From NCBI GenBank assembly GCA_965645245.1, contig OZ287067.1:1922001-1986000 (forward strand): a DNA stretch of 64,000 bases, given 5' to 3'. Each line of letters opens with the position of its first letter. The stretch's first letter is position 1. This stretch comes from Massalongia carnosa. Taxonomy: Eukaryota. Positions 5,180 to 31,300 of the stretch are shown here, one piece after another. The translations under genes and the position numbers were made by a program. The notes under the pieces are model-generated. The model did not search any database and was not told the DNA's origin. It saw only the letters and a list, made by a program, of their open reading frames with translations.

Positions 5180-8100
5180 ACTCTGCGCATCGTCGCGCGC
5201 AGAGCCCTATTTTAATTTCTTCTTGTCTGTTAGCCAACTCGTTTTCTCCTCCCCTTCAATCAAACACTCGTTTTTCCGCAGCCTCCGCTTTGGAGCTGTT
5301 TGAAACCGAAGAAGCGTTTCGAGATAGCCACCTAGTGGTATCATGTATCTTACGTTTAGGTAGATCTCGAATTCAAGCTCTCAATCTGATTGATTGTGGT
5401 GCATCTGGCTATGCATTCATTGACAAGAAGTTTGCGCAAACTCACCAAATCCCCCTTCATCCCCTCAAATACGCCCGACGCCTTGAAGGCTTCGACGGTC
5501 AGCCGGCTCTGACTGGAAATATCACTCATGTGGCCGAGGTAATCATGGACTTAAACGGACATGTAGAAAGATTATTCCTTTTCGTAACAGGACTGAAAAC
5601 CTACCCCATCGTCCTGGGACACCCGTGGTTGCGACGACATCAAGCTCTCGCTGATTTCGAGTCCAACTCTCTCTCCCTGTCTTCCTCTTTCTGCCTGGCT
5701 CATTGTAACCCTCATCCAGTCAAGGTGAAGGCCTACACGGGCGAGAAATTCCTATCTCCTGCGGAAAGTCAGGAAGTATGGGAATCGGAAAACTACTCGT
5801 CCAATAGTCAAATCCTGTCCGAAAAACCTGTCCTGTCCGATAAAACCACGCCGCGCGATAGTAAGACAACTTCTCTCGAAAATCAGGACATCAGTCGTAT
5901 CGAAAAAGCGATTGAACAGGGCGACTCACCGAATATCCGATATCGAAGTCCCTCTTCGTATCGCACCTCCACTCAGCGACATGCTGCCCAGCAGAATCGC
6001 AATCCTCCTGTTTTGGACGGCTGTGAAATCGGCGCCCTCAACTTCAACTATCTCGGACGAAAAAAGAGTCACGAGATGTTTGCTCTCTCCTTGAAAGAAA
6101 TGGATCACTTTCTCGGCCTGACTCAACCTGAACCTAAGCCTGAACCCAAACCCGAATCTCGCCTTCGTCAAGAGACTGACTGGGCACACTCGAAACCAAC
6201 CTACCAACCCAACCCCCGGTCCAGCCCTAGTGAAAAGAAATATCACTTAGCCCTGTTCCGTATGAACCAGGCTCTGACACAGTTATGTTCAGTGACCGAA
6301 CCCGAACCTCAACCCTTGACACTGCAATCATCAGTGACCGCCGAAGAACTGAACGCTTATCGTGAGCGAAAGAACGTCGACCCAGCCCCCCTTCTACCCA
6401 AACAGTATCACGACTTTCTGGATGTCTTCTCCAAAAAAGAATCGGACGTCCTGCCCGAACACCGACCCTACGACCATGCCATAAAGCTAAAAGAAGGCTC
6501 TCCAATCCCGAATCAAGCTCTTTATGGCATGAGTCGAACCGAAATCGAAGAACTCCGACGCTACCTTGATGAGAACCTGTCGAAAGGCTTCATCCGAGCT
6601 AGTAAATCCCCCGCTGCCTCCCCAGTCATGTTCGTAAAGAAGCCAGGAGGAGGACTTCGCTTCTGTGTCGACTATCGAGGCCTCAATGCCATCACGATTA
6701 AGAATCGGTATCCGCTTCCCCTGATCACCGAAACCCTGAATCGCCTGAGTCGGGCTAAGATATTCACCAAGCTGGACATTATTTCAGCGTTCAATCGGCT
6801 CCGCATCAAGGAAGGAGATGAAGAACTCACCGCAGTCAGAACCCGTTTTGGCCTCTTCGAATCCCTGGTCCTACCATTCGGCCTCTGTAACGGCCCCGCC
6901 TCCTTTCAACACTTCATCAATGATACTCTTCGAGAGTATCCCGACGACTTTTGCACGGCCTATCTAGATGACATTCTCATCTACAGCGAAATTGAAGGCG
7001 AGCATGAAATCCACGTCAAACGTATCCTCATCAAGCTGAGAGAAGCCGGGCTGCAAGTAGACATCACCAAATGCAAATTTCATATCACAGAAGTTGCCTA
7101 TCTCGGACTAATCGTAACCACCGAGGGAATCAAAATGGACCCCGCTAAAATCGAAACAGTAACTCATTGGCCAATACCGATCAATATGAAAGATGTACAA
7201 AGCTTTCTGGGATTTGCTAACTTCTATAGACGATTCGTATACGGCTTTAGTAAGATAGCCGGCCCACTGACGAATCTAACCAAAAAGGAGGTCAGCTTTC
7301 AATGGACTGACAAATGTCAACAGGCATTCGAAACTCTAAAAAAAGCTTTCACCTCGGAACTAATACTGATGCATTTCGATCCCGATCGTCCTATCATCGT
7401 GGAAACCGATGCTTCGGACTACGTCTCTGGTGGTATCCTTTCTCAGTATGACAACGAGAACGTGCTTCGCCCCATCGCATACTTCTCCAAGAAACACAAC
7501 CCGGCCGAATGCAATTATGAGATCTATGACAAGGAACTCATGGCCATCGTCCGATGCTTCGAAGAATGGAGACCGGAATTGGAAGGTTCTGCTCACCCCA
7601 TCAGCGTTATCTCAGATCATAAGAATTTGGAATACTTCGCTTCAACCAAACAACTCAGTCGTCGTCAAGCTCGCTGGTCCGAATTCTTATCCCGATTTGA
7701 CTTTAAAATAGTCTATCGACCCGGAAAAGCTGGTGGAAAACCAGATGCACTGACTCGTCGCTCAGGAGACCTCCCTAAAGAGGGGGATGAAACTGATGAA
7801 AGACATAAACATCAGCATCAAACCATCCTGAAAACTCATAACCTGGACGACGAAGTGGCGAAAAGTTTCTTATCCACGATTATCCTAGCCCCCGCGTTCA
7901 TCGAACAGGATCCCGAGTCCGTTGAACATGATCACGAGTTCATTGAACCTGAACCACAGCTGGATCAGCCTGCCGACCAAACCAATCCTGGCCAAGACCC
8001 GACCGACGTCCCAACTCAGCTGTTATGGGAACAAGCTCTGGAACAGGATCAATTCTCTCTGAAAGTTCTAGACATGCTTCGCAATAATGTCAGATATCAT

Positions 8101-9558
8101 AACGGCATTCAGCTAGCCGAATGTGAAGATAAAGAAGGGATTCTTTATTTTCGAAACCGTCGATACGTACCCAATTCGGATCGGCTCCGTCTCCGTCTCA
8201 TTCAACAGGCACACGACAGCGTAGCAGGTGGCCATCCCGGTCGTTCCAAATGCTACGAACTAATGAATCGATCATACTGGTGGCCCAGTATGCATCAAAC
8301 CGTCAAACGATTCATTCGTAACTGTCACACCTGTAGACGATCCAAACCATCCCGCCAACGATACCAAGGATGGCTACGCCCTCTGTCCCCACCCGAACGT
8401 CGATGGCGTGACGTTTCCATGGACTACGTAGGTCCGCTGCCTCCGAGCACCTTCATGGGTATAACCTATCGTTATATCCTCGTCTTCATCGATCGCCTTT
8501 CCAAGATGCGATATTTCGTCCCCACCACCTCCATGGAGGTAGAAGAGGCTGCTAACTCCTTCTACCAAAATGTATGGAAATTACACGGTCTCCCAGACGC
8601 CTTGATTTCGGATCGAGGCACCCAATTCACCTCCGATTTCTGGGACATCATGTGTAAACGGCTTAGAATTGATGCTAGGCTATCAACCAGTTTTCATCCC
8701 GAGACAGATGGCCAAACCGAGAGGGCTAATGCAACCATGGAGCACTATCTTCGGGCATACGTCAATTACATGCAAGATGACTGGGCCCAGTACTTACCCG
8801 GTGCCGAATTCTCCAGCAATAACACCGACTCTTCCAGCATTCTCGCCTCTCCCTTCCTGGCTAATTATGGACAACACCCCAGGGTAGGATTCGAACCCGA
8901 AGAGCCCCTTCCGCAAGACCTGACCGCCCAGGGAATCGCTAACCTGATCGCCGCCAATCGATTCGTAGACAAGATGCGAGACGTAGACACTCACCTACGA
9001 GAAGAGATGTTGATCGCGCAGGCCTCATACGAATCTTCCGCCAATGAGAACCGCCGTCCCTGTCCTCGTTATCTTGTAGGAGACATGGTATGGCTGAACA
9101 CCCGAAATATCCAGACAGCCCGTCCGGCAGCCAAACTGGACGATCGAAATGTCGGTCCTTACCGAGTCTGTAAGGTGTTCGCCAACCCTCTTGTTGTTCA
9201 ACTGGAACTCCCCGACACGGTTAAAATTCATCCGGTCTTTCATGTAAATCTGCTACAACACGACGCAGACGACCCCCTCCCAGGACAAATTCCCGAGCTT
9301 CGCGACCCAATAATAGCCGAAGATGGACAGCGAGAATGGTATGTCAACAGCATTCTGAACTCGAAACTGGACAGACGTTATCAACCTCCGCTTCTCAAGT
9401 ATTTCGTCAACTGGGAAGGACATACCCCCACCTGGGAGCCATTTCACCTACTAACCAACTGCCAACAAGCTCTGGACGAATTCCACGAAGCCTATCCTGG
9501 TGCATCCGGCCCACATCTCACCCCCTGTTCCATTCCTCGATGTCGCTGTCATGAATAA
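5173..9558 (+). CDS. pol: Pol (protease-RT-RNase H-integrase-chromodomain), in the -1 frame relative to gag
   Basis: LIDCGASG, LRFCVDYRGLN, YLDD, ETDASD, NYEIYDKEL, HHCC zinc finger, SDRGTQF, FHPETDGQTER and a C-terminal chromodomain. The frame is open from the slippery site G GGA AAC (5167-5173). Confidence 0.95.
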   Translation, partial: RLDSAHRRAQSPILISSCLLANSFSPPLQSNTRFSAASALELFETEEAFRDSHLVVSCILRLGRSRIQALNLIDCGASGYAFIDKKFAQTHQIPLHPLKYARRLEGFDGQPALTGNITHVAEVIMDLNGHVERLFLFVTGLKTYPIVLGHPWLRRHQALADFESNSLSLSSSFCLAHCNPHPVKVKAYTGEKFLSPAESQEVWESENYSSNSQILSEKPVLSDKTTPRDSKTTSLENQDISRIEKAIEQGDSPNIRYRSPSSYRTSTQRHAAQQNRNPPVLDGCEIGALNFNYLGRKKSHEMFALSLKEMDHFLGLTQPEPKPEPKPESRLRQETDWAHSKPTYQPNPRSSPSEKKYHLALFRMNQALTQLCSVTEPEPQPLTLQSSVTAEELNAYRERKNVDPAPLLPKQYHDFLDVFSKKESDVLPEHRPYDHAIKLKEGSPIPNQALYGMSRTEIEELRRYLDENLSKGFIRASKSPAASPVMFVKKPGGGLRFCVDYRGLNAITIKNRYPLPLITETLNRLSRAKIFTKLDIISAFNRLRIKEGDEELTAVRTRFGLFESLVLPFGLCNGPASFQHFINDTLREYPDDFCTAYLDDILIYSEIEGEHEIHVKRILIKLREAGLQVDITKCKFHITEVAYLGLIVTTEGIKMDPAKIETVTHWPIPINMKDVQSFLGFANFYRRFVYGFSKIAGPLTNLTKKEVSFQWTDKCQQAFETLKKAFTSELILMHFDPDRPIIVETDASDYVSGGILSQYDNENVLRPIAYFSKKHNPAECNYEIYDKELMAIVRCFEEWRPELEGSAHPISVISDHKNLEYFASTKQLSRRQARWSEFLSRFDFKIVYRPGKAGGKPDALTRRSGDLPKEGDETDERHKHQHQTILKTHNLDDEVAKSFLSTIILAPAFIEQDPESVEHDHEFIEPEPQLDQPADQTNPGQDPTDVPTQLLWEQALEQDQFSLKVLDMLRNNVRYHNGIQLAECEDKEGILYFRNRRYVPNSDRLRLRLIQQAHDSVAGGHPGRSKCYELMNRSYWWPSMHQTVKRFIRNCHTCRRSKPSRQRYQGWLRPLSPPERRWRDVSMDYVGPLPPSTFMGITYRYILVFIDRLSKMRYFVPTTSMEVEEAANSFYQNVWKLHGLPDALISDRGTQFTSDFWDIMCKRLRIDARLSTSFHPETDGQTERANATMEHYLRAYVNYMQDDWAQYLPGAEFSSNNTDSSSILASPFLANYGQHPRVGFEPEEPLPQDLTAQGIANLIAANRFVDKMRDVDTHLREEMLIAQASYESSANENRRPCPRYLVGDMVWLNTRNIQTARPAAKLDDRNVGPYRVCKVFANPLVVQLELPDTVKIHPVFHVNLLQHDADDPLPGQIPELRDPIIAEDGQREWYVNSILNSKLDRRYQPPLLKYFVNWEGHTPTWEPFHLLTNCQQALDEFHEAYPGASGPHLTPCSIPRCRCHE

Positions 9559-9679
9559 AACTGCTTCGCAGGAGCTCAGCTCTTGAAAGGGGAGCTACTG
9601 TCATGAAATCGAACCAACCCGATCCAGAATCAATCCCGCAGATGAATCTGACTAAGCTCCCGTTCCTCTATTCAGCTTA

Positions 9680-11488
9680 ACGTATTTACTAGCCAATCGG
9701 GCCAGCTACCCATTCGGGCCACCCACCAAAACCAACACCAAAATTTCAACTTTTTCGCCTTGCATCTTGTACCACACCACCATGGCCTCATCAAATGAAA
9801 CCATCATTGATGTTAATAGTTCTGATACTAGAATGGAATTAGCTATCGCTGAGTTGAAAAGAAATCCTGCTATATCTCAGCGTCAATTAGCTAAGGAGTA
9901 TAACGTGCCTAGATCTACCCTTCAAGCACGTATTCACGGTCGGAAATCAGCCAAAACCTATCATGAAGAGTCTCAACGATTATCAGTAATTGAGGAAAGG
10001 GCTCTGATTGGCTGGATAGAACAGATGACCGAGTGGGGCTGGCCCCCACGCATACAACATCTAGAAAGCATGGCAAAAAATCTTCTGAATGCGAAGGGCG
10101 ATAGCGAGCCTTTGGGTCATTGTTGGTATCAGAATTTTTTAAAGAGACACCCTGATTTCAAGTGCAAACACAGTAGAAATCTGGATCAAGTCCGAAAAGA
10201 TGCTGGAAACGTTGATATCATAAAAGACTGGTATCAATTATACTCGACTACCCGAACGAAGTATGGAATAGCCGACGGAGATGTATACAACATGGATGAA
10301 AAAGGGTTTGCCATGGGCATCGCCGATAGCTCCAAAGTGTTAGTAAAAGTCACTGAAGCTGAAGCATTCAACGTCCATTCGGGTAATAGGGACTGGGTTT
10401 CAATGATTGAATGTGTTTCATCTTTGGGATCCGTTTTACCAGCTTATTTTATATTTCAAGGAGTTTCGAGTACAGCAAGCCTGGCTAGGTCCTATCAAGG
10501 ATAATAGGACCACCTTACAAGTCAGTCCCAATGGATGGACCACCAACGAAATAGCACTCCATTGGCTGAAAGAGGTGTTCGATTTGCATACTCGACATAC
10601 GCAGGGCGTTTATAGACTTCTTATACTCGATGGACACGAAAGTCATGTATCTATCGATTTTATGACTTATTGCGAGCAACATAAAATCATACCGCTTTGT
10701 TTGCCCCCTCATTCAACTCATCTATTGCAACCTCTGGATGTGGGCGTTTTTTCACCTCTAGCTAAGGCCTATAAAAAACGGGTAGCAAATCACTCTCGCT
10801 ATGGGGCCGTCAACGTTTCGAAGATAGATTTTCTAAGTTATATTCAGGAGGCTAGAAAGGAGGCCATGACTATTATCAACATCAGCTCTGCATGGCGAGG
10901 TGCAGGTCTAGTACCACTCGATCCAAATTATGTTCTAGCTAAAGTATCGAGATCAAAACCTTTTCCGCGTGATATTAACGCTATCAGTACTCCGAAAACA
11001 ATCAAGAAAATCAGAGAGACTAGTGAGACCCTTCTACAAAATATAACTCCGTCTCTTCGAGGGCCTGTTGAACAGCTGAAAATCATAGCTCTTAATGCTA
11101 TTGCTGATAAAACCATTCTAACACAGTCAAATCAGGAGCTTATTGATAAACAAAAGACTCGACGTACAAAGCAGTCTAGAAAGGGTTGTGAAAAGGCTAA
11201 GGTGCTGACTGTGGGTGCAGCACGTACAATGATGGAAGAAAAGGAGAAGGCGGCTGAGGCAATAGCCAATCAAAAGGCTAGATATCATGCCTTAAACGGA
11301 AAGGTAAAATTTGCGAAAATAGTATATAAAGAGATGGGTATGAATATTGATATTTTCATGTAATTATATTGGAAATAGATGATGATAAAATCATGTAATA
11401 ATGGTTGTTAAGTTGATAAGATGATTTGGTCAAATTTTTGGTGGGGTGGCCCGACTGGGTAGCTGGCCCGTTTGGCTAGTAAATACGT
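9680..11488 (+). mobile_element. Fot1/pogo transposon inserted in the 3' LTR of Gypsy 1
   Basis: TIR ACGTATTTACTAGCCAA(T/A)CGGGCCAGCTACCC at both ends; TA duplication at 9678-9679 and 11489-11490. Confidence 0.95.
9782..11363 (+). pseudogene. Fot1-type transposase with a single frameshift near 10465
   Basis: HTH (YNVPRSTL) and YNMDEKGF, then GWTTNE, LILDGHESH and HLLQPLDVG in a second frame. One extra T in GGAGTTTCGA. Confidence 0.9.
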
Positions 11489-11943: not shown

Positions 11944-13790
11944 TTATGTAGAATTTAATTGACTATGACGCTGGTAAAACAGCTTTGCTTGCCTGGGCAT
12001 AGATCGAGCGATTGCTTTATACTTTCGATCCAGGGCCAATTGCTTCTTTTCAGCAGCTAGTACGGCACGTTCATAGGCCTGCTTGGTCTTTTCCACCTCA
12101 TTCTGAGTGCGTTTTATAACCTTCGCCCGTACATCTCGAACGGTTATGACTCCTCCCTTCTGGGCCACCTTTCCATCAAGTTTTCGTCGTGCTGTCTTCG
12201 CGATGGACAGCATCTGATTGGCCCGAAGGTCTCGCTCTGAAATCTGACGTGCATGAGCACTGGAGATGGAGCCTTTCACAAATCGTTCCACATGACAGTC
12301 CCACTCGGCATTCAAAACATTGTACTTCTTCAGGCTTTTCCGAAGCTTATTTCCATAATCAACAACCTCTTTGGCTGTGGAAGGTGTTCTGGCGAGCAAT
12401 GGAGCTGATGGAAGTGGGGGCGGGGTAGCAGGCCTACGAGTCTGAATAGCCTCCACTTTGCGGAGTACCACTTCTGGATTATAAGGCACCAGACCCGTGT
12501 TTCTGAATGAAGCTAGTATGGTAGTTGACGTGAATGTTTGATTTCGCATGATCTGAAAAATCGATAGAAAGTCGAGTTTATCGAAATCAGACCCTCCACC
12601 CCGCATCAGTTGATCAATGGCTTCGGAATGATAATGTTTGAAAGGCTGAAAACATCCTACATCCAATGGCTGAGTGAGATGTGTGGAATGAGGTGGAAGA
12701 CGAAATAATTCGATTTTTTTTCGTTTGGCATAGGTAAAGAACTCGAATGTCATATGAGATCCATATCCATCCATGATGAGCATGCGCCATGCACCTACCT
12801 GCCCCTTTCGACTGCGTTTGTCGAAATGTTTCAACCAATCGAGAGCTAAATCATCATTGGAATAGCCGGTAGGACTGGTGGTCAGGAGAATATCATCATC
12901 CAAGTCATTGTGTTGGGCCCATTTCTCCAGTACCCATGCACCAGCGATTATGATCATGGGGGGAATATCACGCCCCCCTGCACTAATACATTCATACGAG
13001 GTGATATATTCTCTATTGTCCGAGTCCGTCAACAGCAAAGACTTTCTAGAATGAGTTGAAACAACCCAATGAGCTCGCCAACAGCCAATTCGAAAGCCTG
13101 TCTCGTCCATGTTCCAAATATCCTCATCCGCTACTCCAAGAGCCTCGCGAGCAGCCCGATATGTCTCGAAATATTTCAATACATCATCGACGTTGTGTGC
13201 ATGTTTTCGCTCGACGGCTAGTGGTTTTTGTTTGCGTTTGAAGAATTGAGGATGTCGAGTCAGAAAACGTTTGGTCCAGGCATTGCTGACGTGGGGAGAA
13301 GGAGTGAAAACGTCTGAATGAGCCTCTTGAAGTAGATTGTGACGAAGCGAGATAGTGAATAGATTTCTACCATTGCGCCACCTGTCCTTCCCGACCAAAA
13401 GGCACAATACTTAGTCCGCAGACCAAGCTCTATTCTACTATAACTGGGACTCCTGCTATGTTCGCTGTAGGTCCTGCCGTCCGCACCACGCTTGGTCGGA
13501 CCGTTACATAGATAATTTGCTGCCGCCCGAATCATTGAAATTCCGGCAGATTGTTCGGCTTGATCGAGCATTTTAATAGATTCACAAAGAGCTAATTCTT
13601 CTTCATCAGACAGAGATTTGGGGGCAGAACGACCGATTTTCGAACCACCTCCATTAAGTCTTCTCTGTAGAGTACGAATGTCCACGTCGTACTCCAAAGC
13701 TACCGCGCGCACACTTCGAAAATCACCCGTGTCCCACGCGTCAATAGCTTCAAGAATTCGATTCTCCTTACTGAAAGATAAACTAGACAT
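11944..13790 (-). pseudogene. pogo/Fot1 transposase interrupted by a solo LTR
   Basis: N-terminal HTH (13790-13514) and DDE core (WNMDETGFRIG, LIMDGYGSH, HLTQPLDVG) are separated by the insertion at 13338-13508. Confidence 0.9.
13338..13508. mobile_element. 171-bp solo LTR (family X, copy 2)
   Basis: TG...CA ends; TSD TAGAT (13333-13337 and 13509-13513). Confidence 0.92.
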
Positions 13791-13893
13791 GATGTGGTGG
13801 AGTGATTACGTGGTGAAGCTGTATGCGTCACTGAGGTGTCGGACACTAGTAGGCGACTCGCCTCGATTACTAGTTTCTTGACACGATTAACTA

Positions 13894-15815
13894 ATCGTGC
13901 TAAATCACTTTCGGAATGGAAGGGCATCCCTTAGTGCTTACCATCTCAATGACGCATTGGGCTCAATGTCGTTTTTTTCACCATCTACCCACCATCTTTG
14001 ACACGTAAACACCCCACACAATGCCTTCTGATTCTTATTATAAACTCGAAAATCGTATTGAAGAGGCCATCGACGCGCTTCATGATGGTTGGTATAAGAA
14101 TTGCACCAAGGCTGTGCGTGCATACGACGTGCCCATTTGTCAACTTCAAAGACGATGGAATAGGTCCAATTCCAAAAGCACCCGCCCCAGCACCAACAAA
14201 GCTCTTACGGAGGAGCAAGAGGAGGCAATTCGCGAGTATATTGATCGATGTGACCAGTTCAATATGTGCGCTAGGCCAAAGATGATTGTGGGGGCGGCGA
14301 ATTATTTGATTCGTTCAGAGGATCGAAAGGTGGGGCATCAGTGGTTCAATCGATTTCTTGAACGAAATCCACAGTACAACAAGCGCAAAAAAAAGCCCCT
14401 GGCGATGGATAGAAAAAACAGTCACAGTCTCACAGATATGCGGGATTATTTCTATAAATTGAAGGCTGCTATTGAGAACAAGGGCATTACCGACGTGGAC
14501 GTTTGGAACATGGATGAAACAGGCTTTCGCATTGGCTGTGGGTGGGCTCAAATGGTGATTACCATGGACCCGAAAAAGCCTTTGCGAATGACGGACCCGG
14601 ACAATCGTGATTATATCACGACGGTGGAGTGTATAAGTTCTGGAGGGGAGGTGATTCCCCCTTTGATCATCATTTCAGGGGTGCAGATTTTGCATAAATG
14701 GTGTCAGGAAAATGATCTACATGATGACATTCTCATTGGCACCAGCAACAGTGGTTATTCAAATGATGATTTAGCTATGGACTGGTTGAATCACTTCATC
14801 GAGCATACGAGTAGCAAAAGGCAAGGTGCATGGCTACTTTTAATCATTGACGGTTTTGGATCGCATATGACCATCCCATTTTTTTAACTAGCCACTGCCA
14901 ACAACATCGTTTTGTTTCGATTACCAGCTCATTCCACTCACCTCACCCAGCCATTGGACGTAGGTGTTTTTCAACCGTTCAAACATTATCACACCGAGGC
15001 AATAGATCGGGCTGTCCGGTTGGGGACTGTCAGTTTGGTAAGCTGGAATTTCTCGCTGCATTTCAGGGCTTCCGAAATGAAACGTTCAAACCATCCACAA
15101 TCCGTCATGCGTTCAAATCAACCGGAATCGTACCGTTTGACCCAAACGTTGTCCTGGACAAAATTCGAGAAAAGGAGGCACGATTGAGGGAGTCGGTCAT
15201 TCGAACTCCCTCCCCTCCCCCCGCTTCCATTGAATCAACGCACACCCCATGGTCCCGAATCGGTTGTTCGGTACGGTCGAAAGCTTCAGAGAGCCATTGC
15301 CAAAGCGGGACCCAATGATAAACTTGAGGTTCAACAGGTTGAACGGTTCGTTCGCGGTTCGGTGGCATCCGCTCATGCTCTGGATTTGACCGCTCGAGAC
15401 CTTCATGCCATGCAGGAAGCAGCTTCATCACGTCAGAAACGAGCCGTTCTTGGTGGACAGGTGGCCTCTCAGGGTGGAATCATCAAGGTAAGTCAGTGTA
15501 GGGAGCTTTGTTCAAAAAGAAAGCAGAAGGAGGAGGAAAAGGCGAAACGGAAGAAGGCTAGAGAGGAGAAAGCGGCTGAGAAAAAAAAAGATTCTCAGCT
15601 GAATCAAATAGCCTTTCTCATCAACGACACACCTTTGGTAGATTAGTCAATTATCTACGTATCAGAATTGAAACATTCACAATCGGGGTTGTTTTGATGA
15701 TGTGGTGAATTGTTTGGTAGGTAGATGGTGAAAAAAACGACATTGAGCCCAATGCGTCATTGAGATGGTAAATACTAAGGGATGCCCTTCCATTCCGAAA
15801 GTGGTTTAGCACGAT
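13894..15815 (+). mobile_element. pogo/Fot1-like transposon with ~95-bp TIRs
   Basis: TIR ATCGTGCTAAA(T/C)CACTTTCGGAATGGAAGGGCATCCC...CACCATCTACC at both ends, TA flanks. Confidence 0.93.
14021..15646 (+). pseudogene. pogo/Fot1 transposase with an in-frame stop (14885-14887) and a frameshift (~15025)
   Basis: WNMDETGFRIG, LIIDGFGSH and HLTQPLDVG spread over three ORFs; paralogous to 11944-13790. Confidence 0.9.
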
Positions 15816-15997
15816 TAAGTCATATCATATCTGACGAAGAAGCTTATCCGAGGCCGATTTTTTTTTCGGGGCCGCGGGGTTGAGATTTAGCGTAAAAAAT
15901 GCTGGCTTGGCGGTCCTTCAAAAAGTGGACTTATCGCCTGTGACTTTGGGGTATAAACCGACTTATAGGCGTGACCCTGCAAAATCGTCACGCTGTA

Positions 15998-18900
15998 TAT
16001 GGACAATATCGCCCGTGACCAAGCTCCATACCACGATTTTCTCTCCTCGACCCATTCAGTCGAACTGCAAAAAGCCTGCCTGTCCCCGTTTTGCGCCGCG
16101 AGCGACTTGCTGGTCAACGAGCGTTCTACATACCACGGATACCCTCTTTGGCGGCCGCACGATGGACCCGGGCCCCTCCGCTGCAGGCCCCGCTGTCGCA
16201 GATCCGGAGACGGCGGCGCCTCTTTCTTGGCCTCCTCCTGAGGCTTACGTTGATGTCGAGGCCGTCAAGCGTGAGTCTCAGGCCTATGCCACCCACGGCA
16301 ACAACGAGGCCGCCATGGCCGCCACCATGAGGCGCGTCCGCGGGATGCGGGAGGAGGATCGGAGGGCCAACACCCTTAAGGCGTACCGCAGGTGCTGGCA
16401 TCTGTGGGAGGTGACTACGATAGGTATGCCCTGCAACTTTGGGCCTACGCTAACATCCTACAGAAGTGGTGCCGACGGCGCAATTTTCTTGACGGCGTCC
16501 TTGTGTGGGAGCGGAAGATGCTCCTCTTCCTCGAAGAGGTCGTCCTCCGCCTGCGCTTCGTCCCACGTCCCAAGTTCACAGGCGCAGCAGCGCAGGCCAG
16601 GCGGCGGGATCAGGATCGCCAACGGCAGGCTAAGCGCCGCGCGTTGAAGAGGGGGAAGGGGAAGGCGATGGAGGCGGTGGAAGCCTCGCCAGCGGTAGAG
16701 GGAGAGGAGCTGGAGGAGGTGGAAAAATTCGAGGAATTCTCCGACGGCGAGGAGCTCGTTGAGACGGTGAGTCGGCCCCTGAACTCGAATTCAGGGATAG
16801 AATCATCTTTTTGTAGCTTACTGACTCGTCTTGCAGCAAGCCGACGACCCTTTATCCCGGCCCCTGGCGCCCGATAGCGTGGAATCGGGCTACGTCTCTG
16901 CCCTCTGCGCCCTCTTCGATGGCCAGCATCTCGAAAAGAATTTGGTGGTGCCCCATCCCAGAGGGAAAGCCACCAAAGCCCTGATGACGCGCTTACGCAT
17001 CGATTGGAGCGCTTTCAAACGGGCCTCGTTCGAGGATCGCGCGATCCACGGCCTCACCGACGGCTACACGATTGAGCAGGCCGCTCAATTTTCGGCAATG
17101 CTGCTCGCCGGGGGCAAGGTTTTGGGGGAGGAGGGCGTGGCGGGCGGCGAGTGGCACCTCCTGCGGACTAGCCTCGACTTCCTCCTAATGCATTCGATGA
17201 TGCTGCGGGGGGAGTCAACGCGGAGGGCTGAGCTATCTGACCTCTGCGCCTACGACCTCCCTAACGAGGGGTCCGAATGCCTTGCGTTGATCCTTCGAAT
17301 TGGCTAGGGCAAGAGCATTCCTCTGGCGGACGGGGGCAACTCGCGCCGCCAGCATTACTATGGTGCTTTGCGGAGCAGAGATGTCGTCCTTTGTCCTCTC
17401 GGCGCCCTCGCCCACTGGCTCGTCTTGTGCTAGGACCTCCTCCTGGAGAAGCGGCCGGACTTCCGGGATCGATCTTAGTGGTATTTCACGAAGGAAGGTC
17501 ATCTCCGGGAGCCTGGCGCGATCTAAGGAGGAGATCTCCGACAAAACACAGGCCCGATGGATCAAGCCGGCTTTGGATGCTGTCGGCGTCGACAGCTCCA
17601 AGACGGTCCACACCATGCGGCAGTCCTCGTCACGGCTGGCCGACATGTGGGAAGTCCCCGCGGACCAGGTAAGTACTCTACGATTCATGGCCCCTTATAC
17701 TTACTAGCGTTACCCTTATATCAACTACTACAGATCATGAGAGCAGGCGGATGGGAACGTGGCGTCTGGGCCACTAACTACCTCACTCGCCTGCCGCGTG
17801 TCTACATGCGTCGCGCCGCCGGCTTTGGCAACTCCCCCGGGAGTTACTTTTTGAGAAGAGGACACTCACCGGATCTGGCCCTGCAGCGGCAGGTGTGGCC
17901 TTGGGTGGATGACGCTCTGGCGGCGTACAAAGGCGGTCTTTTTCCTGATGCGGATAAGGCAGGGAAGAAGGTTCTGGAGATGTTGCTGCGGCTGCGTTGT
18001 GTCTTCCTGCAAGACGCAGCGCTTCTACAGCCTCAGTTTCCTGAGCTTTCGCTCTGGAGACACCAAGTCTTCAGAGATCCCCTTTGGCCTGCGTTCGCGG
18101 CGAAGATACGGGAGTTGGAGGCTGTAGAAAAGGAACCTTTGCACGTGGCCATCCACGGCGTGCTGCCTCTTGTTACTGACTCCGTTGATGGCGTCAGTAA
18201 CAAGGTCAGCGGTGTTGCAATTAAGCAAGATCGCACGCTCAACGCTGTGGAGAGGTTGCTCTCCGGGCAGAGCCAGCTGACGACCACCTTGAGTGCGCTG
18301 CCGGCGGCAAATGCCCAGGAGATAGCTCGAGTCCTGGGTTCGCAGCTCTCACAATTGCAGGCCACGGTCTCGACGCTGCTTCGATCCTTTCTGACGGTTC
18401 CTGTGGAGGCTGTTCGGAGGGACTGGCTGCTGGACGAGGCTTCTTGGCGAGGGCAGGCGACTGCTCTTGCGACGGCGGCGCACTCCGTTGGTGAAGAGCC
18501 TGCTGCGTCGGCGTCCTCGTACGTCGACGCAGTCGCTTCTCTCCTTCCTACACCTTCTGTCGTCCTCACTTCCGTCCCCGGAGAGACGTCTACGGTCTCT
18601 GCGCCCTGTGGCTCCCTCCCCCAAGAGGGGCCGCCTCAACGTCCTCCTGGCTGCCCGGCGGAGCCCATTCTCGGCGGCGTGACCTCGGCGGAGGCGGTGT
18701 TGGAGGAATTCGCGTTGGGGACGTTGGTGGAGGGGGTCCAGCGTGCATCTCTCGACGAGTTGGACCGCCTCTTTGGGGCTAAGTGGAGGTACACTCCTGC
18801 CCTGAGGCAGCGGTTCTACGTCAAGAGACGGATCCGTCGGTACCTTCAGGGGAAGGCGAATGAGCAGGGGAGGGATCCGTGGGATATTGCGCGGGAAGTT

Positions 18901-19531
18901 GACAGTTTGGGGCTCTCTGGACATCAGATCTCTAAGCGTATTGACGCTGGAGAGGATCTGCTTCGTAGATAGGCCAATGGTACCTCTCTTTCTCTCTACG
19001 AGTACTAGTCATGGAGGCCTGTAACACCGTTTCTACTAAGAAGCGATCACTCGTAATGTTCCTGTAGTACCTCCTTCTCGTTTCTGTGACTGGGTGGGAC
19101 ATCTTGTGACGAGGCGTGCAACTGCACCACGTATCGCGCCATCAGCGCTACGTTAATTCTACTCGGGGTAAGATGTTTCTTCTATTCAGAAGAAGCTCTT
19201 TTCAGCAAACCCAGTTTCAAAATTCTAGCAAAACCCCTTTGTGGTTCGATTGCGGAGCGCAAATGTCGACCTTCGCAACGACCAGGGCCAAGCAGGGCGT
19301 CAGTTTTGCACGGCGATCCTACACTTCACAGCACATCAAATCAGACAATTCAGGCGCGGGTCTACTCGTTGAAGGATGCTCTATTTGACGGTTTAAATTG
19401 CTTCAAAATAAAATTTTTTCTCGCTGCGCGAGACTACAACTTCAGGTTACTAAGGCTATTTGGCGTGACAAGAAACAATCGCGGGATTTAGGATTTTAAA
19501 CGCCGCTAAGTGTCACGGGCGATAATTATGG
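15998..19531 (+). mobile_element. Crypton (tyrosine-recombinase DNA transposon, CryptonF-like)
   Basis: TATGG direct repeat at 15998-16002 and 19527-19531. 13-bp subterminal inverted repeat TATCGCCCGTGAC (16007-16019) / GTCACGGGCGATA (19512-19524). Encloses a GC-rich YR gene. Boundaries are inferred from these repeats. Confidence 0.78.
16162..18972 (+). pseudogene. Crypton tyrosine recombinase with NDC10-II-like region and C-terminal GCR1_C-like domain; 3 introns, 3 nonsense codons, 1 frameshift
   Basis: NTLKAY...W, YVSAL, LRGESTR (catalytic R), CPLGALA, HTMR (HxxR), AGGW...NYL (Y), WPW, FLQDAA, and LDELDRLFGAKWR. Introns at 16411-16463, 16767-16836 and 17669-17733. TAG stops at ~17305, ~17431 and ~17476; AAGG duplication at ~17491. 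Confidence 0.88.
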
Positions 19532-20088
19532 CTTATCGGACATTGAGAAGTAGACAAACGCACCCCACTAGGAGGATGCTGTTGAGCACTCTGTTCGGTG
19601 AAAAAATTCCCGATTCTAACATGACAGATCATGGACATCGTTAGAGAGGCGTAGGAATTTAGTGGACGAGGTGCACGAGTTGGAAGAGTGATAGGGTTTA
19701 AGAAAGAGGAAGTGGAGTTGAATGAAGTGAGTGATAAGGTGATGAGCGAGGGGAGCATGGGGCGGACGAGAGGTGTTTAAATGAAATTCCTGCGAGCATG
19801 CCCATCACCTTCCAGAATAACTAGCTGAAGCTGAACCAAACACCATTTTCTGAGTATTTAGCATTTACTCAGCAAGCTAGACTCGGATTTTTAGTGTGAA
19901 TTTGATAAAGATCTTAGAAGTTTTGGTTGGTGATAGTTTCTTCTTTTGGTTTCCGGATGAGACGGTATATAAGCATTCAAGAGGGGATACCAAGGCTTAC
20001 AAAACAGAGTATTGCCAGGAAGGTGGAGATATTCCGCGGCCGACGGAATAGCCCCCTTCAAAACCATAGGAAAAATCGGTTTATAGTC

Positions 20089-21586
20089 TTATCTGTTGTC
20101 CTGCCTGAACACCCATAATGCCAGCTTATGCCTTACAAGTAGCCCTATCAATCCCGTCAAAGCCTGCATTGCCAGTATATCAATTGCAAGCCGATCTTCT
20201 TTCAAGGGACCAAACCAAAGAAGCCATAAATTTAGAATTGTGAGATTGGAGGACTGGGTAATCTGGCCTTTTTCATCCGTTTCAATCTTGACCAAAGGCA
20301 AAGGTAGGTTCGCAAGAAACTTCAGAGTCCATGCTATGAGCGTAGATGGGGGGTGTTGCCATTCGGTCGCAGATGGCTCGAGAAGGCCCGACCGAGCGTT
20401 GAAGTGCGGAAGACGATGCCTTGGACATGGTATTACCCGAAACAGTTGTGGTGCGGAGTATACAAAATTGATAATCTGCGGTATGAACAAGAGCAGTAGT
20501 GTTTTGCTAAAATGTCCGAGAATCCCAACGATTGCGAAGACCATGCCTGCAAAATAGCAATATGTGTCACCAACAAACACTTTAGCTGGATACCAGTTGT
20601 GCCACCATAGAGCCAATGATACACCCAAGAACGGGAGGAGCAGATAAATTGAAAAAAGATGTGGATCCGTTGCTGGATGAGGCTCCGGACTGCTTTGTGC
20701 TGCGTACAAGGAAGTTATGTCATTGATTACAAGAAGAAGACTGATGACCAGAGACTGTGAAACCTCGATTCCATTTATACCGGCAAGGATATTGATGCTG
20801 TTCGGACAAAATATAGCGATAGCAGCCATGTAAGCGTAATACAGCCATCCAAGATCGACCATTGTTCCCAAGTAAACCTCGAGATGAACGGGAACAACCA
20901 CGTTAGTAACGCCAAAATCGACAAAATAGACTACGAGTATCGGAATAGACGCGAACGCTGGGATGAAGAACTTATGACGCCATCGGATATCGAATAGGTC
21001 GTCGCCGATGCCTAAGAGAACAACGGATTGCAAAGACAAGATGGCGGATAAATAAGACGCCAACTGTTTCAAGGCTTAGTTTTGCTTACGGTCTAGTGAG
21101 GATAGTGCTATCACCTTGCTGTGGGGGAATCGATGCAGAATGCGACCCGTCTCGAGCTCCTGACGTTCTATTACGACATCTCTATTGCCACCTCCTGAGG
21201 TGGCGGCTACAATATCTTTGTAGAAAGGAAAAGGAATGAAAATAATGATTATCAGAAGATAAACCACGGCGCACACAGCGCCCATTGCCTCAGGACTGCA
21301 TGATCCAAAATTTAGTACCCCAAATATTTGCATATCAAACGTGATTGACGTACATCTCCACCCTTTTGATCTTTGCCATGTCCCGGCCCTTGAGACCAGC
21401 CTTCATAAAAGCATTCCCCAGCCATCGTATAAGGCTGTACGTAAACGCAAACGCGATGCCGCTCAGCGCGAGTGAGACTATCAGTGGCTCACCTTCCCCT
21501 TGAAATGAATTCGCGACTATGCCAAAACAGGCCACGGAGAGCAGACTGAGGCTTGATGTCTCAGTTCTGCTCAAAGATTTGGTCAT
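20089..21586 (-). CDS. ALG7: UDP-GlcNAc:dolichyl-phosphate GlcNAc-1-phosphotransferase (DPAGT1/GPT)
   Basis: GRDMAK...IPEAMG, LLGIGDDLFDIRWRHK, FCPNSINILAGINGIE, VFVGDTYCYFAG, GHFSKT and PCPRHRLP. Introns at 21353-21296 and 21114-21064. Confidence 0.96.
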
Positions 21587-25012: not shown

Positions 25013-25464
25013 TGTCAGGACTCGGGTGTGGGAGCGCTAAATCCAACGGCTCTTTCCGACCGAAGCTTCGGAGATAAGCTTCTAGAGCCGGATGGAAACT
25101 TCGAGAAGAAGGGCAAACGGGCATATAGATTTCACATTCTTCTTTTTAAATAGATTTCTCTTCTTCATGCTTAGTCCCTGGATAGTGGTTCTTACATTAG
25201 ACTAAGCATCTTCTTTAACCCTTGCTATCCTGAACACGATATTAAACCGTTCAACCAGGAAAATTAGAAGAAGAACCCGGAACTTAGACTAGAACCAGAT
25301 CATAGGACCTTAGAAGCAAGGATTTCTAGGCCACCAGAATTACCAGAATCAAAAGAAGAACTCAGACCCAGAAGAACCAGAACCCAGGATCGTAGAAACC
25401 AGGATTTCTCGGCCATCGAATAGAAGATCACAAGATAAGAACACCCCCAAGAAAGAAAGAAGAA

Positions 25465-27636
25465 ATGCCCCGAGTAATCAGCGAGCCTCGAAGGAGTAGG
25501 CTCACTATGGACGAACCCATGGAGGGCCGACGTGAGTCCATTGTCCCTAATATTATCGATGATGACTCCCCATATAGCATCGACTCCGTGGATAGACTGA
25601 ATGAATTTGTCCGCCAGGACCCCCAGCGGGTGGTGGAAATGATAACTGAGTTGAAGACGGAGTCCCGAACGAAGACCCACCTATTGAACAAGGTGGCCGA
25701 AAGATTCAATGAAACGTTAGAGATAGCCCGGACCCTTCGCGATGAGCGGGACTCGGCCCAAGAGGAATTGGATAAAGCTAAGGTGATAATCCAATTTCTT
25801 CAAAACACCAACATATCGTCCGCAAGCACCGCATCGGCCGAGAATGTGCATACACACACGACCACTACCGCGTCAACACCTGCCCCCGAAGGAGTTGGCA
25901 AATCTTCCAAGCTTCCTGACCCACCCATTCTCGAAAATAATAAAGACGACAACTTCGAGGACTGGCTATCTAGCATGCGAAATAAGCTAGAAGGCAATGC
26001 GGATTGGTACCCTACCGAGGCCATGAAAAAGGCATACGTACGGACTCGGGTTGGTGGTGAGGCAGTCAAGCATATAGCCTCTAGATTTAGAAAGGAGTCT
26101 ACCAAACCATTTACCACTGCTGAAGAGATTTTCGATGATTTAAACCGAGTATATGGTGACCCTCACAAGGAACAAACAGCACTGCGAGAATTCCGCGACC
26201 TTAAACAAGTGGGTAAATATCGAGAATTCCATGCCTTCTGGTCAGAATTCCAACGCTTAGCCAACGAACTTGAATATTCCGAAAAGACCCTACTGAATGA
26301 GCCCGGCACGAACACGAGTGCGCTGGGATTCGTAGACGACGTAAACGTGTTGCCATACGGTAAAAGCACGGAAGAAAATTGCAGAACTCTTGAAAGAATT
26401 CACAGGAAATGCGAATTGTGGGCGACACGGCATGGCTCCGTATTTGCACCGGATAAATATGAACTCATTCATTTGTCAAGAAATCCAAAGAAATTCAACA
26501 TGACGGCCACTATTCAAATTGAAACCAATCTGATTGAACCAAAAACGGACATAAGAGTACTGGGCCTACAAATCGACACAAAACTAAAATGGGGAGCTCA
26601 TATACGGAAGACGCAGGAAAAGATGACGTCGCAGTCGCTAGCGCTCACAAAAATCTCGGCATCCACCTGGGGAGCATCCTTCGCAAAGGCCCGGCAGGTC
26701 TACACCTCCGTCGTCCGCCCGGCAATGACATACGGAAGCGCCGTGTGGCACACGCCCAAGGAAATCAAGAAAAACAAGGCCACGATGTCCAAACTCAGTG
26801 TCATGCAGAACAAATGCCTACGCACTGTGGCAGGAGCGTTTAAAGCAACACCCGTCGAGGTTCTCGAAGCGGAAACTTTCATCGCCCCTATGGAGCTACA
26901 CTTGGATCATCTGCAGATGAAAGCAAGATACCGCCTACGGGCCTCAGGGCAAGCGAAACTGATCACCACTGCCTGCAGCACAATAGCGAACAAGCTACGA
27001 GGCAAGGCAGGACGCAAAAGAATACAACGCCCCACCCTAGGAGATTTAAAACACGAATGGGCCAGCAAGATGCTAAACAACGAAGCCCCAGCCGCAATAC
27101 CGCCGCCGCCCCGACCCTGGTCAGGACCCGACCCTGTCCGTCTCGAGAAATACATCACGGCACGCCGAATTATCGGAAAGCACGCAAAGACCATTACAGT
27201 ACGAATCAAGGAGCGTTGGGAGACCAGGTGGAAGGCGTATCAGGACCGCGTTCCCTACCCAACAGAGGCACAGCTCGGACCACTCAACAGAACTAGATTG
27301 AAGATTCATGACAACTTGATGAAGGCGGAAAGCGCGCTAACCACGCAAATCCGCACTGAGAAAATAGGTTTGGCAAACTTCCTGTTCAATCGTCGGGTTC
27401 CGGGAGCTATGACTCCAGCTTGCTCGTGTGGCTGGCAGAAACAGACTGCCAAACACATCATATTACACTGCAGACTAATCGAAGGCAGATATGAGCTGCT
27501 CAGACAATTGGGCACCCACGACTACCGGACGATTACGCGTTCGTCGAAAATGCTGAAAAAGCTAACTGCATGGATAATAAAAGCAAACTTGTTAACACAG
27601 TTCTCACTAGCATCGCAAATGTTATACGAGATATAA
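25465..27636 (+). CDS. Chimeric 723-aa ORF: Gypsy Gag N-terminus fused in frame to the C-terminal half of a LINE ORF2
   Basis: Gag motifs KLPDPP and LKQ...F...F up to TLLNE, then LINE GFVDD, F.PDK.ELIH, VLGL..D.KL.W..H, and CSCG...HIILHC. Confidence 0.85.
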   Translation: MPRVISEPRRSRLTMDEPMEGRRESIVPNIIDDDSPYSIDSVDRLNEFVRQDPQRVVEMITELKTESRTKTHLLNKVAERFNETLEIARTLRDERDSAQEELDKAKVIIQFLQNTNISSASTASAENVHTHTTTTASTPAPEGVGKSSKLPDPPILENNKDDNFEDWLSSMRNKLEGNADWYPTEAMKKAYVRTRVGGEAVKHIASRFRKESTKPFTTAEEIFDDLNRVYGDPHKEQTALREFRDLKQVGKYREFHAFWSEFQRLANELEYSEKTLLNEPGTNTSALGFVDDVNVLPYGKSTEENCRTLERIHRKCELWATRHGSVFAPDKYELIHLSRNPKKFNMTATIQIETNLIEPKTDIRVLGLQIDTKLKWGAHIRKTQEKMTSQSLALTKISASTWGASFAKARQVYTSVVRPAMTYGSAVWHTPKEIKKNKATMSKLSVMQNKCLRTVAGAFKATPVEVLEAETFIAPMELHLDHLQMKARYRLRASGQAKLITTACSTIANKLRGKAGRKRIQRPTLGDLKHEWASKMLNNEAPAAIPPPPRPWSGPDPVRLEKYITARRIIGKHAKTITVRIKERWETRWKAYQDRVPYPTEAQLGPLNRTRLKIHDNLMKAESALTTQIRTEKIGLANFLFNRRVPGAMTPACSCGWQKQTAKHIILHCRLIEGRYELLRQLGTHDYRTITRSSKMLKKLTAWIIKANLLTQFSLASQMLYEI

Positions 27637-27832
27637 CTTCTCATTTTCGTCAAGGATTCTAAAGAAAAACGATCACAGAGAGCAGCCTGTTGCCAGCGAG
27701 GCTCCGGAGGTAGTGCGTAGTCTACGGGGTTTTTATTCCCAAGAAGGGTTTTCCTTGTATGATAAACATAGACAGCCCGCATGGGCCGGCCTTCGGCCGG
27801 TGTCATATCGGAATAAGAATAAATCAATCAAT
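26303..27832 (+). mobile_element. 5'-truncated Tad1-like LINE
   Basis: 14-bp TSD CCTACTGAATGAGC (26289-26302 and 27833-27846), (AATC)n-type tail, RT domains 5-7 and a C-terminal cysteine motif. Confidence 0.93.
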
Positions 27833-28304
27833 CCTACTGAATGAGCTCCGCAACAAGATGAACTTTGAGCTCCAGAAGATGCTAGCCGTCGAGGCCTACA
27901 AGGCCACCGATTTGTATGAATTCGCACGCCTATGCATGCATACTGATCAGTCCATCCGCGAGGTTGAGACCAAGACGAAAGGCTATCGAAAGAACTTTGT
28001 TGGCCCCTCAGTACCTATCGCAAGCACGGCCGGTGGGACCACCTCCATCGTAAAGGCCTCCACCCCCGCATTAACCCGTACTCCCGCAATGCCTTCCGCC
28101 ACCAGCAGCCGATCTTCAACGCCCTTTATGGCCCGAGCCCCCCATCCCGATCCAATCATGGAGAAAAGAATGAAGGAAGGAAGATGTTTTAACTGCGATC
28201 TGACCGGGCATATGGCCAAAGACTGCCCTCAGCCTAGAAAGGGACGGGTTAGCGAGATGAGCGCAGAAGCAGAAGATTCGGGAAAAGACGCACCTCCGTC
28301 ATAG
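27833..28304 (+). pseudogene. gag: Displaced C-terminal part of Gypsy 2 gag with CCHC zinc knuckle
   Basis: Resumes at LLNELRNK after the TSD; CFNCDLTGHMAKDC; ends SGKDAPPS. Confidence 0.9.
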
Positions 28305-28323
28305 ACGCGGCGGGGTAGATGAG

Positions 28324-31300
28324 TTGGTTATCACATCTTTCTTTATGGAGGATGATTTATTCGATGACCATCCAGTAATGGAAGATTGTATCGTAGGAAA
28401 TAAATTTAATACGAGAGCGATGATTGATACTGGATCTACTGGTTATTGTTTTGTTGATAGACTAACTGCGCAGGAAATATGTGAAAAGGCTAATATCTCA
28501 CCGGTGACGTTAAATAGACGGAAAGAGATAAAGGCATATGATGGAAGAAAAGGCAAGCCTATTACCCAGGCCATTTATCCATCTCTGAAAATTGGAAATC
28601 ATACCGAGAGCTCAACACCAATGTTGATCACCGAGCTGGGCCAACAAACGATTATTCTTGGCAAGCCTTGGATGCGAAAACTTGGTGTTAGCTATCATGG
28701 GCATACGAATTCGATTTCTTTTCGTCCCGATCATTGCAATCATCTAGGTGCCCCCGAAAGGCCTTTCCCATCGTCGCCAATCAGGAGAGAAGAACCGGGC
28801 TCAACAAAGGACACCACGCCTATATTCCAACCAAAGAAGATATTGAAAAGAGACGAACCCGATGAAAAGAATCATAGCAACTCGAACCCGATTTCAGTTC
28901 GAAGATCAAGAAAGGAAGATATCTTGAAGCAAAAGTCTTGGAGAAAAGACGCCGAGAGCGAAGAAGCCCTGGATATAGCGATGATAGGTGCAGACCCATT
29001 TAATGTATTAACGAAACAAAAGGATGTCGAGATATTTGCAGTCTCGCTGAGAGATATCAACTTTGAACTAGCCAAGGGAGAAAAGCCAGTCACCGATCCT
29101 AAGACCATAGTCCCCCCCGAGTATCACGATTTTCTTGATGTTTTCTCTAAGGAAAAAGCTGATGAACTGCCCCCTCATAGAAAGCATGACCATACCATCG
29201 AATTGCTAGAAGGTAAAGGACCCGGGCATGCCCCGCTATATAATATGTCAGAGGGAGAACTCCTACTGGTCAAGAGATATTTGGAAGAAAATCTGAAGAA
29301 AGGATTTATTACAGCCAGCTCGGCCCCATTTGCCTCGCCGATACTATTCGCCAAGAAACCGAGTGGAGGACTTCGGTTCTGCGTCGATTATCGAAAGCTA
29401 AACGAAATCACCAAAAAAAATCGATATCCCCTACCTCTGATATCTGAGATAATGTCTCGATTGGCCAGGGCTAGATTTTTGACAAGAATAGATATTCGAC
29501 ATGCCTTTAACCGACTTAGGATGAAAACCGAAAAGGACGAAGATCTCACAACCTTCCGCACGCGATTTGGGTCATATAAATCTCTAGTATTACCCTTCGG
29601 ACTGACCAACGGCCCTGCTACGTTTCAGAACTTCATCAACGATACCTTCTTAGAATATCTAGACGAATTCCTAATAGCCTATCTGGACGATCTCTTGGTT
29701 TATAGTGAAACCATGACTGACCACCGAAAACATGTTCGAAAAGTTCTACAAAAGCTTCGAGAAGCTGGTATTCAGGCTGATGTGGATAAATGCGAATTCC
29801 ATGTGACCGAAACAAAGTTCCTAGGAGTGGTAGTCGGGCGGAATGGGATCAATATGGACCCTACCAAAATTGAGGCAGTCGTCGAATGGGCCATCCCTAG
29901 GCATCTTAAACAGGTGCAGGCCTTTCTAGGATTTATCAACTTTTATAGACGTTTTATCAAAGACTTCTCCAAAATAGCCAAACCCCTCGTACATCTAACT
30001 CGAAAAGACGAACCATTCAATTGGACCCCAGCCTGCCAAGCAGCTTTTTCCGAATTGAAAAGACGGGTGACCGAGGCCCCGGTCCTCGCGCATTTCAGCC
30101 CAAGCCGAGAAACGTTCGTGGAATCGGATTCATCTGATTATGTGTCAGCCGGAGTATTATCGCAAAGAGGTGAAGATGGACTTATCAGACCAGTAGCCTT
30201 CTTTTCAAAGAGCCTGTTGCCAGCCGAATGCAATTATGAAATATACGATAAAGAATTGCTTGCAATAATCAAATGTTTCGAACAATGGAGGCCTGAGCTG
30301 CAATCCACCGAGCTCCCAATCAAAGTGTTGACCGACCACAAAAGCTTGGAATATTTCATGACAACCAAAAAGCTAAATAGGCGACAGGCCAGATGGGCTG
30401 AATTTCTGGCCGATTTCAATTTTGTCATCACATACCAAGCTGGAAAATTCCATACAAAGGCAGATGCACTAACTAGAAGACCAGGAGACAGGCCCGAATC
30501 AGAGGAAGATGACAGGCAAAGGCATCAACATCAGATAATCTTACCTCTCGAAAGCCTAGACCCTCAAATCCAAAAGGAAATGGGGTTTGAAATGAACGAG
30601 ATCAACGCGGAAAAGTCGAAAGATCCGCTCGAGAATAATGCCAAACTATTTGTCCCCGAAGAAAAGAGAATGAAGCTGATACAGGAAGTTCACGATCAAC
30701 CAGCCGTTGGCCATCCGGGAATAAAGCGGACCTACGAGATGATGAAGAAATTCTTTTTTTGGCCAAAGATGAAAGGGACCATAGAACAATACATTCGAAA
30801 TTGTCATACATGCAAAAGCGCAAAAGCTCCAAGGGACGGTTATTCCGGACTATTAAATCCGCTACCTATACCAGACCGGCCCTGGACAGATATATCAATG
30901 GATTTCGTAACTGGCCTACCTGAAAGCAAAGGTCATAATGCAATATTAATGGTAGTAGACCGATTTTCCAAGATGCATCATTACATTCCATGCACCACGG
31001 ACGAAGAAGGGACAACTGCCGAAGAGACGGCCCGAATGCTAATAAAACATGTATGGAAATTGCATGGCCTACCGACCACGATAATCTCAGATAGGGGACC
31101 TCAATTCGTATCGCTAGTATGGAAATCGCTATGCGTAATGCTGGGAATAAAAGCCAAGTTATCAACCGCATTCCATCCCGAGACCGACGGTCAAAGCGAA
31201 ATATCCAATCAAGATATGGAGCGATATCTGAGAACCTATGTCAATTATCAGCAAGATGACTGGACAGAGTGGCTATCGATGGCCGAGTTCGCATCAAATG

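Follow-up and report, generated by a model that had tools for sequence, protein, structure and literature searches.

What does this locus carry, where does it end, and what do its ends say about how it moves? The window, by which we mean the whole 64,000-nucleotide stretch analysed (Massalongia carnosa contig OZ287067.1, assembly GCA_965645245.1, positions 1,922,001 to 1,986,000, forward strand), contains a Crypton, an element whose mode of movement has stood as a proposal since 2003. The active CryptonF of PMC9977147 combines copy gain with clean excision, a pairing still without explanation in the available part of that paper. A first-pass annotation of the locus had placed the element's ends at two TATGG motifs and proposed that circularisation there creates a loxP/FRT-like site with 13-bp arms.

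Ends, copies and empty sites

A search of its own genome with the element returned 62 matching pieces, and in 17 copies, with 94-100% mutual identity, the gene is covered without a break. Homology between copies stops at 15842-15843 on the left and at 19535 or a few bases further on the right, and the flanks of dispersed copies are unrelated (16 independent left and 15 right flanks, the left count excluding the duplicates or near-duplicates L010, L011, L022, L025, L027 and L028). The direct repeat at the ends is of the CryptonF type (4-6 bp), single at empty sites and without TSD; there are no terminal inverted repeats, the inverted boxes being subterminal and at least 88 bp from the left end. 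Judged from these limits and from empty paralogous sites, window 15842..19535 (+) is almost certainly a degraded copy of a multi-copy CryptonF DNA transposon with the ends given in Table 1. The CryptonF family is new, with target RCTTAKC, its class being taken from domains, catalytic residues, ends and copies.

Table 1 Features of the CryptonF element in the window (coordinates are window positions)
Feature	Position	Strand	Remarks
CryptonF element	15842..19535	+	3694 bp including both terminal GCTTA repeats; from homology limits among copies and empty paralogous sites
Left junction GCTTATC	15842..15848	+	15842 (G or A) comes from the target; invariant base C at 15843; TTATC probably forms the inner end of a half-site for binding; 16 independent left flanks
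Subterminal box CTTATCGCCTGTGAC	15930..15944	+	perfect box in some copies
Degenerate subterminal box CTTATAGGCGTGAC	15962..15975	+	
Internal imperfect palindrome	15987..16019	.	inverted box 15987-15999, 7 bp, box 16007-16019; 9/13 complementary
Recombinase exon 1	16162..16410	+	ATG 16162; splice sites predicted from the sequence (GT-AG intron, CTAAC branch site)
Recombinase exon 2	16464..16766	+	homolog alignment; splice sites from sequence
Recombinase exon 3	16837..17668	+	catalytic R (17206), K (17311), H (17609), R (17618); three TAG and a duplication
Recombinase exon 4	17734..18972	+	W (17752), Tyr nucleophile (17779), weak GCR1_C near the C-terminus
Short palindrome CTCGCTGCGCGAG	19420..19432	.	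retained in relative L083
Subterminal box TATTTGGCGTGAC	19457..19469	+	retained in L083; three copies end alongside
Right terminal box (right arm of the first-pass annotation)	19512..19524	-	GTCACG 20 bp before the invariant C, also in L083
Likely 7-bp spacer TTATGGC	19526..19532	+	between GATAA (19521-19525) and TTATC (19533-19537); element-type in 15/15 right junctions
Right junction GCTTATC	19531..19537	+	bases beyond CTT follow the target, consensus RCTTAKC

Both TATGG motifs are present at the reported places (15998-16002 and 19527-19531), but neither is an end of the element. Homology running past TATGG, which the annotation had itself named as evidence against its proposal, was found on both sides, by 156 bp on the left and by 4 bp on the right. 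None of the 16 left flanks ends in TATGG, and the empty sites, expected to hold a single TATGG, keep instead one (R)CTTA and no TATGG. Thus, three of the four fetched paralogs of the L005 locus (L093-L095) run straight through one ACTTATC, the fourth carrying a 9-bp insertion at that place; L017 joins both flanks of copy L013 via one GCTTA, and in L049 one GCTTA likewise lies between the L021 left flank and the L010/L024 right flank. The same search yielded no paralog reaching the junction for the left flanks of L007, L017 and L026, and for L003 it returned right-flank paralogs whose left side does not match the L003 left flank. A single-copy contig of run X4 agrees with the window from 19531 onward only, where ends at TATGG would predict 19527; its 52 further letters would, by their number, fit an empty site beside the pogo-like end at 15817. 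Contigs of runs X1 and X3 enter the element.

Four copies had at first appeared to begin near 15995, as an end at the left motif would have it. Two of them are TA-site insertions of DNA transposons, the real left end lying farther out, and the remaining two showed no left end within 9 kb. As for the arms, perfect 13-bp inverted boxes do exist at 16007-16019 and 19512-19524 and are kept among copies, but at the proposed joint they would stand 11 bp apart, not 7. Since 167 of 500 Markov simulations run on the span produced a perfect 13-bp inverted pair, the pair alone is within chance, and it is conservation among copies that gives it weight. At the real joint, mirror symmetry is limited to GATAA and TTATC, and no two 13-bp arms surround a 6-8-bp spacer. 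With its ends misplaced, the proposed att site falls too; nor is the site loxP/FRT-like, because targets share neither an 8-bp spacer nor a pair of 13-bp arms with the element. Cre/loxP and Flp/FRT resemble this system in their tyrosine-recombinase residues and repeated 13-bp boxes. Partners of the loxP/FRT kind require identity over the 8-bp spacer, whereas targets here have no paired arms and share 1-4 bases rather than a full spacer. Although its motifs exist and its boxes are conserved, the model with TATGG ends is contradicted by inter-copy homology, by the empty sites and by a relative which has neither TATGG nor half of the arm (see below), and we give it next to no chance. The corrected ends spare a reporter experiment on the wrong site.

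The TATGG termini that the first-pass annotation mentioned for oomycete CryptonS are indeed reported in the available part of PMC3212892, and TATGG occurs here too, within the right spacer; unlike in CryptonS, it is non-terminal, and CryptonS elements come from stramenopiles and have no GCR1_C. Of the 24 CryptonF-group elements tabulated in the PMC3212892 supplement, none is given TATGG ends.

Several copies are rearranged. The right ends of L010, L011 and L024 lie 78 bp early, at an internal GGCT (window-equivalent 19457), as would follow from recombination at a secondary site or from deletion through microhomology. In L006, L010, L011, L021 and L024 the left and right flanks derive from different repeats, which suggests inter-copy rearrangement or a Crypton-mediated translocation as reported in Chlamydomonas. 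A subfamily (L020, L026-L030, L043, L046, L047) is cut within the right box and has a common right flank of at least 3.6 kb that holds a fungal protein kinase gene (PF17667; L054:1324-2292); its loci, mostly near contig ends, look like passive segmental duplications. An internal inversion (window-equivalent 18368-18584) is common to L021, L022 and L024. Among the 17 aligned copies, C>T or G>A make up 420 of 689 changes, and classical CpA RIP was ruled out, CpC being the most mutated context (0.31 per site vs 0.15 for CpA).

Recombinase gene and subterminal boxes

The first-pass identification of a Crypton whose tyrosine-recombinase gene is broken was borne out. One run that contains the stretch is labelled lichen metagenome, so the host is probably a lichen-forming fungus; no RNA run was among those listed, which does not bear on expression. 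The gene product is classed as a CryptonF tyrosine recombinase, the fold call resting on Pfam and residue conservation: NDC10_II matched with 58.8 and 50.5 bits against a cut-off of 26.3, and the R, K, H, R, W and Y residues are all present in the window copy. Among 69 aligned proteins they are conserved in 69, 69, 65, 67, 49 and 54, respectively, with 17 gaps at W and 12 at Y. The GCR1_C match was weak (21.9 bits, E 2e-4, below the cut-off of 23), and three full-length homologs match GCR1_C with 58-70 bits. When longer homologs were sought at the protein level, 0 and 1 matches came back, and no solved structure was matched by sequence.

The lesions are those that had been listed, three in-frame TAG codons (17305, 17431 and 17476) and one 4-bp duplication (17490-17493); the window copy is also 3 bp short after 17857 relative to 12 of 16 other copies. 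None of the 17 near-full copies has an open recombinase frame. Copies L001-L004 have two stops and the frameshifting duplication in common and yet occupy four loci, L002 being 99.8% identical, inverted and about 21 kb away; because these lesions are shared across four loci, copies probably moved in trans, and a dead copy with these ends would likely be mobilised by a recombinase supplied from elsewhere.

Six boxes resembling TAT-N5-GTGAC lie near the ends, at 15932, 15963, 15987 (inverted), 16007, 19457 and 19512 (inverted), and the 13-bp arms of the first-pass annotation are two of them. Twelve further matches with at most 4 mismatches occur elsewhere in the window, so the degenerate boxes carry little weight alone. 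The palindrome at 15987..16019, which lies 142 bp upstream of the ATG and contains the left TATGG, may be an operator or an accessory or resolution site. TA dinucleotides within it attract DNA-transposon insertions (L031, L032).

Among nine metagenome relatives a recognisable right end was found in L083 only, and a clear left end in none. L083 (66% protein identity) retains the palindrome at 19420 and both right boxes at an almost unchanged distance, and then GTCACG, exactly 14 nt, and CTTATC; it has neither TATGG nor the inner half of the formerly proposed arm. As L083 is a single copy, its right end is a predicted one.

Junction pattern and position of the crossover

The base before CTTA is G in 12 and A in 4 of the independent left flanks, which show no other strong consensus. 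Right junctions run in the order box, 7-bp spacer, CTT (common to 15/15), A (14/15), then T (10), G (4) or A (1), and C (11/15), the target consensus being RCTTAKC. The two sides differ in origin: in 16/16 independent left junctions the target bases are kept up to the repeat, the left flanks matching the element's spacer at just 0-4 of 6 places, and in 15/15 right junctions the element's own 7-bp spacer is found, six times with a point change or 1-bp loss. This spacer holds the right TATGG, and its last two bases match the target. If heteroduplexes resolved 50:50, the odds of the observed right junctions would be near 2^-15.

Mismatched targets allow the crossover to be positioned. In copy L005 the target's A remains left of the insertion and the G at the right junction is the element's own, which places the crossover right of the purine; in L013 the target's G at +4 remains on the right, which places it left of +4. 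The family-1 crossover should therefore lie within C-T-T-A, a firm limit. Copies L006 and L014 weakly hint at a narrowing to the single C, the right flank of L014 matching its paralog for 7 bases only and L006 being chimeric. The edges of the repeat vary: 4 of 16 junctions have A at -1 and 5 of 15 have a base other than T at +4, and all nine resolve alike.

The same genome holds a second CryptonF-like family (L103-L136; 34-38% protein identity to family 1). Its right ends read CTCATG in six of seven independent cases and CTTTTG in one, leaving aside L119, a deletion form of L110. After the shared G, targets have A (4), T (2) or G (1), and before it the left flanks have T (8), A (2) or C (1) (n=11, omitting internal tandem joints and one duplicate), so that crossover identity in this family narrows to one invariant base, the G. 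There are two exceptions, the L131 left flank, which matches the spacer at 5 of 6 places, and the L107 right end, which has two changes. Five of 7 places in the ends are mirrored about a 7-bp stretch, and left ends are also found inserted in subterminal sites of the element itself. At the left end of this family a 7-bp inverted pair flanks 8 bp, and mini-elements of about 55-130 bp and head-to-tail arrays occur (e.g. L113:6690-6990, minus strand, and L125).

In the Crypton model as published (in the available parts of PMC3212892, PMC13465315 and PMC9977147), the GCTTA(T) repeat (5-6 bp) is the overlap, both strands are exchanged, and homology between end and target drives integration and excision. 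The shared CTT, the nearly constant A after it and the one repeat kept at empty sites agree with this. The repeat edges, however, are where homology matters most in tyrosine recombinases, and it is the edges that vary while every such case resolves alike; in family 2 end and target disagree already at the base beside the invariant G. We regard this model as unlikely, although it retains some standing.

About as probable as the contrary, or slightly more so, is that the repeat represents the inner end of a binding half-site and that one strand exchange, at the spacer edge, survives. This half-site reading is preferred because 1-4 shared bases together with a double exchange would yield heteroduplex and two junction types, and one type is seen. 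The argument assumes the usual 6-8-bp stagger, the distance between tyrosine-recombinase cuts given in the accessible text of PMC3212892. The mirror half-site is weak in targets: GATAA scores 33, where 21.6 would be expected (best of 9 offsets, p 0.005), and lies one base closer than in the element, and in L083 it is poorly kept (2/5).

Two exchanged strands could be reconciled with the one-sided pattern if, as in IntDOT or Tn916, the second exchange across the 7-bp spacer proceeded without homology and the heteroduplex were then repaired with strong bias. IntDOT needs no more than one or two identical bases at the first cut (PMC2817482, in its available part), and the same two-base pattern is seen in both families. 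Against such biased repair, no junction of the opposite type occurs in 16 left and 15 right ends, and the spacer is constant over copies up to ~6% apart, which makes it quite improbable.

Under the half-site reading, the element would insert at RCTTAKC with a recombinase likely supplied in trans, which probably binds the subterminal boxes. Only one lasting strand exchange is likely to take place, beside the invariant C at the edge of the 7-bp spacer, TTATC acting as the inner end of the half-site rather than as a homology spacer. Joined ends would form a circle with a GATAA / 7 bp / TTATC core, further boxes serving as arm or accessory sites, and the junction left by the first exchange would be resolved by replication or host enzymes; a single exchange so resolved would yield both clean empty sites and copy gain. 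A circle or head-to-tail joint of family 1 was not found in the assembly, where only two ordinary right junctions turned up, nor among the joints listed for four contig sets, contigs being prone to drop rare forms.

Comparison with known systems and surroundings of the element

In the available text of PMC3212892 and PMC9977147, CryptonF elements, including Chlamydomonas CryptonF-1_cRei, share with this one a YR gene (with GCR1_C there and a weak GCR1_C match here), a length of 3.7 kb, a short terminal repeat without TSD that is single at empty sites, and copies with exchanged flanks. The ends GATAAT, ATTATC and TACTTA listed for oomycete CryptonF (PMC3212892) resemble the core motifs found here. 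Distinctive are the target RCTTAKC and the subterminal boxes and constant spacer, which are absent from the accessible portions of those descriptions. A circular intermediate of CryptonF has been proposed and, in the portions of the literature at hand, not shown in print. We found no description of Crypton att-site anatomy in the literature on Cryptons, mostly open papers, although Goodwin 2003 may describe subterminal repeats.

The closest parallel to the junction pattern comes from the strand-biased circularising integrative elements of bacteria (SE; PMC10214605, feature iii, in the part available), in which the element's spacer goes to the right junction (attR) and the target's to the left (attL). 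According to the same portion, SEs need four genes (intA, tfp, intB, srap) where here there is one spliced gene, so the resemblance is in working and not in membership; moreover, their circle takes up the spacer of the left end and no empty site remains, whereas here the right-end spacer is constant. IntDOT of CTnDOT (PMC2817482, available part) likewise works with 1-2 matching bases at one edge of its overlap (7 bp) and has arm-type sites, but it completes the second exchange and forms heteroduplex, and no second junction type is seen here. The Starship Hephaestus (PMC10104507; 10.64898/2026.09.21.753150; both as far as their available text goes) is also a fungal YR element with a 4-bp repeat, an extended target preference and clean excision; it differs in its DUF3435 recombinase and its large cargo, and its circle has been detected, whereas no circle was seen here.

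Put together, these likenesses raise the possibility, tentative and somewhat short of even, that Cryptons are eukaryotic strand-biased integrative elements, in which the repeat would be a half-site, one base of identity would be enough, and a single exchange plus replication would leave the donor intact while producing a clean empty site and a circle, all with one protein and an attP-like array of TGAC-containing boxes. If true, this would change the textbook view of the direct repeat as a homology region and would have consequences for Starships and for how DNA binding by Ndc10 and Gcr1 arose. The base-level ends, the target consensus and the natural mismatch cases in two families provide exact substrates and a sharp prediction of junction bias.

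Other mobile elements lie around the Crypton. A pogo/Fot1-like element with 103-bp inverted repeats (13892-15817) ends 24 bp left of the Crypton, and further DDE_1 transposase frames lie at 425-1441, 9656-11363 and 11944-13410. Ty3/Gypsy-type retrotransposon frames were found at 3914-9558, 25396-31986 and 62135-63292, chromodomains being present in the second and third. A glycosyl transferase family 4 gene (20089-21075, minus strand), which we take to be ALG7-like, lies some 550 bp beyond the Crypton's right end.
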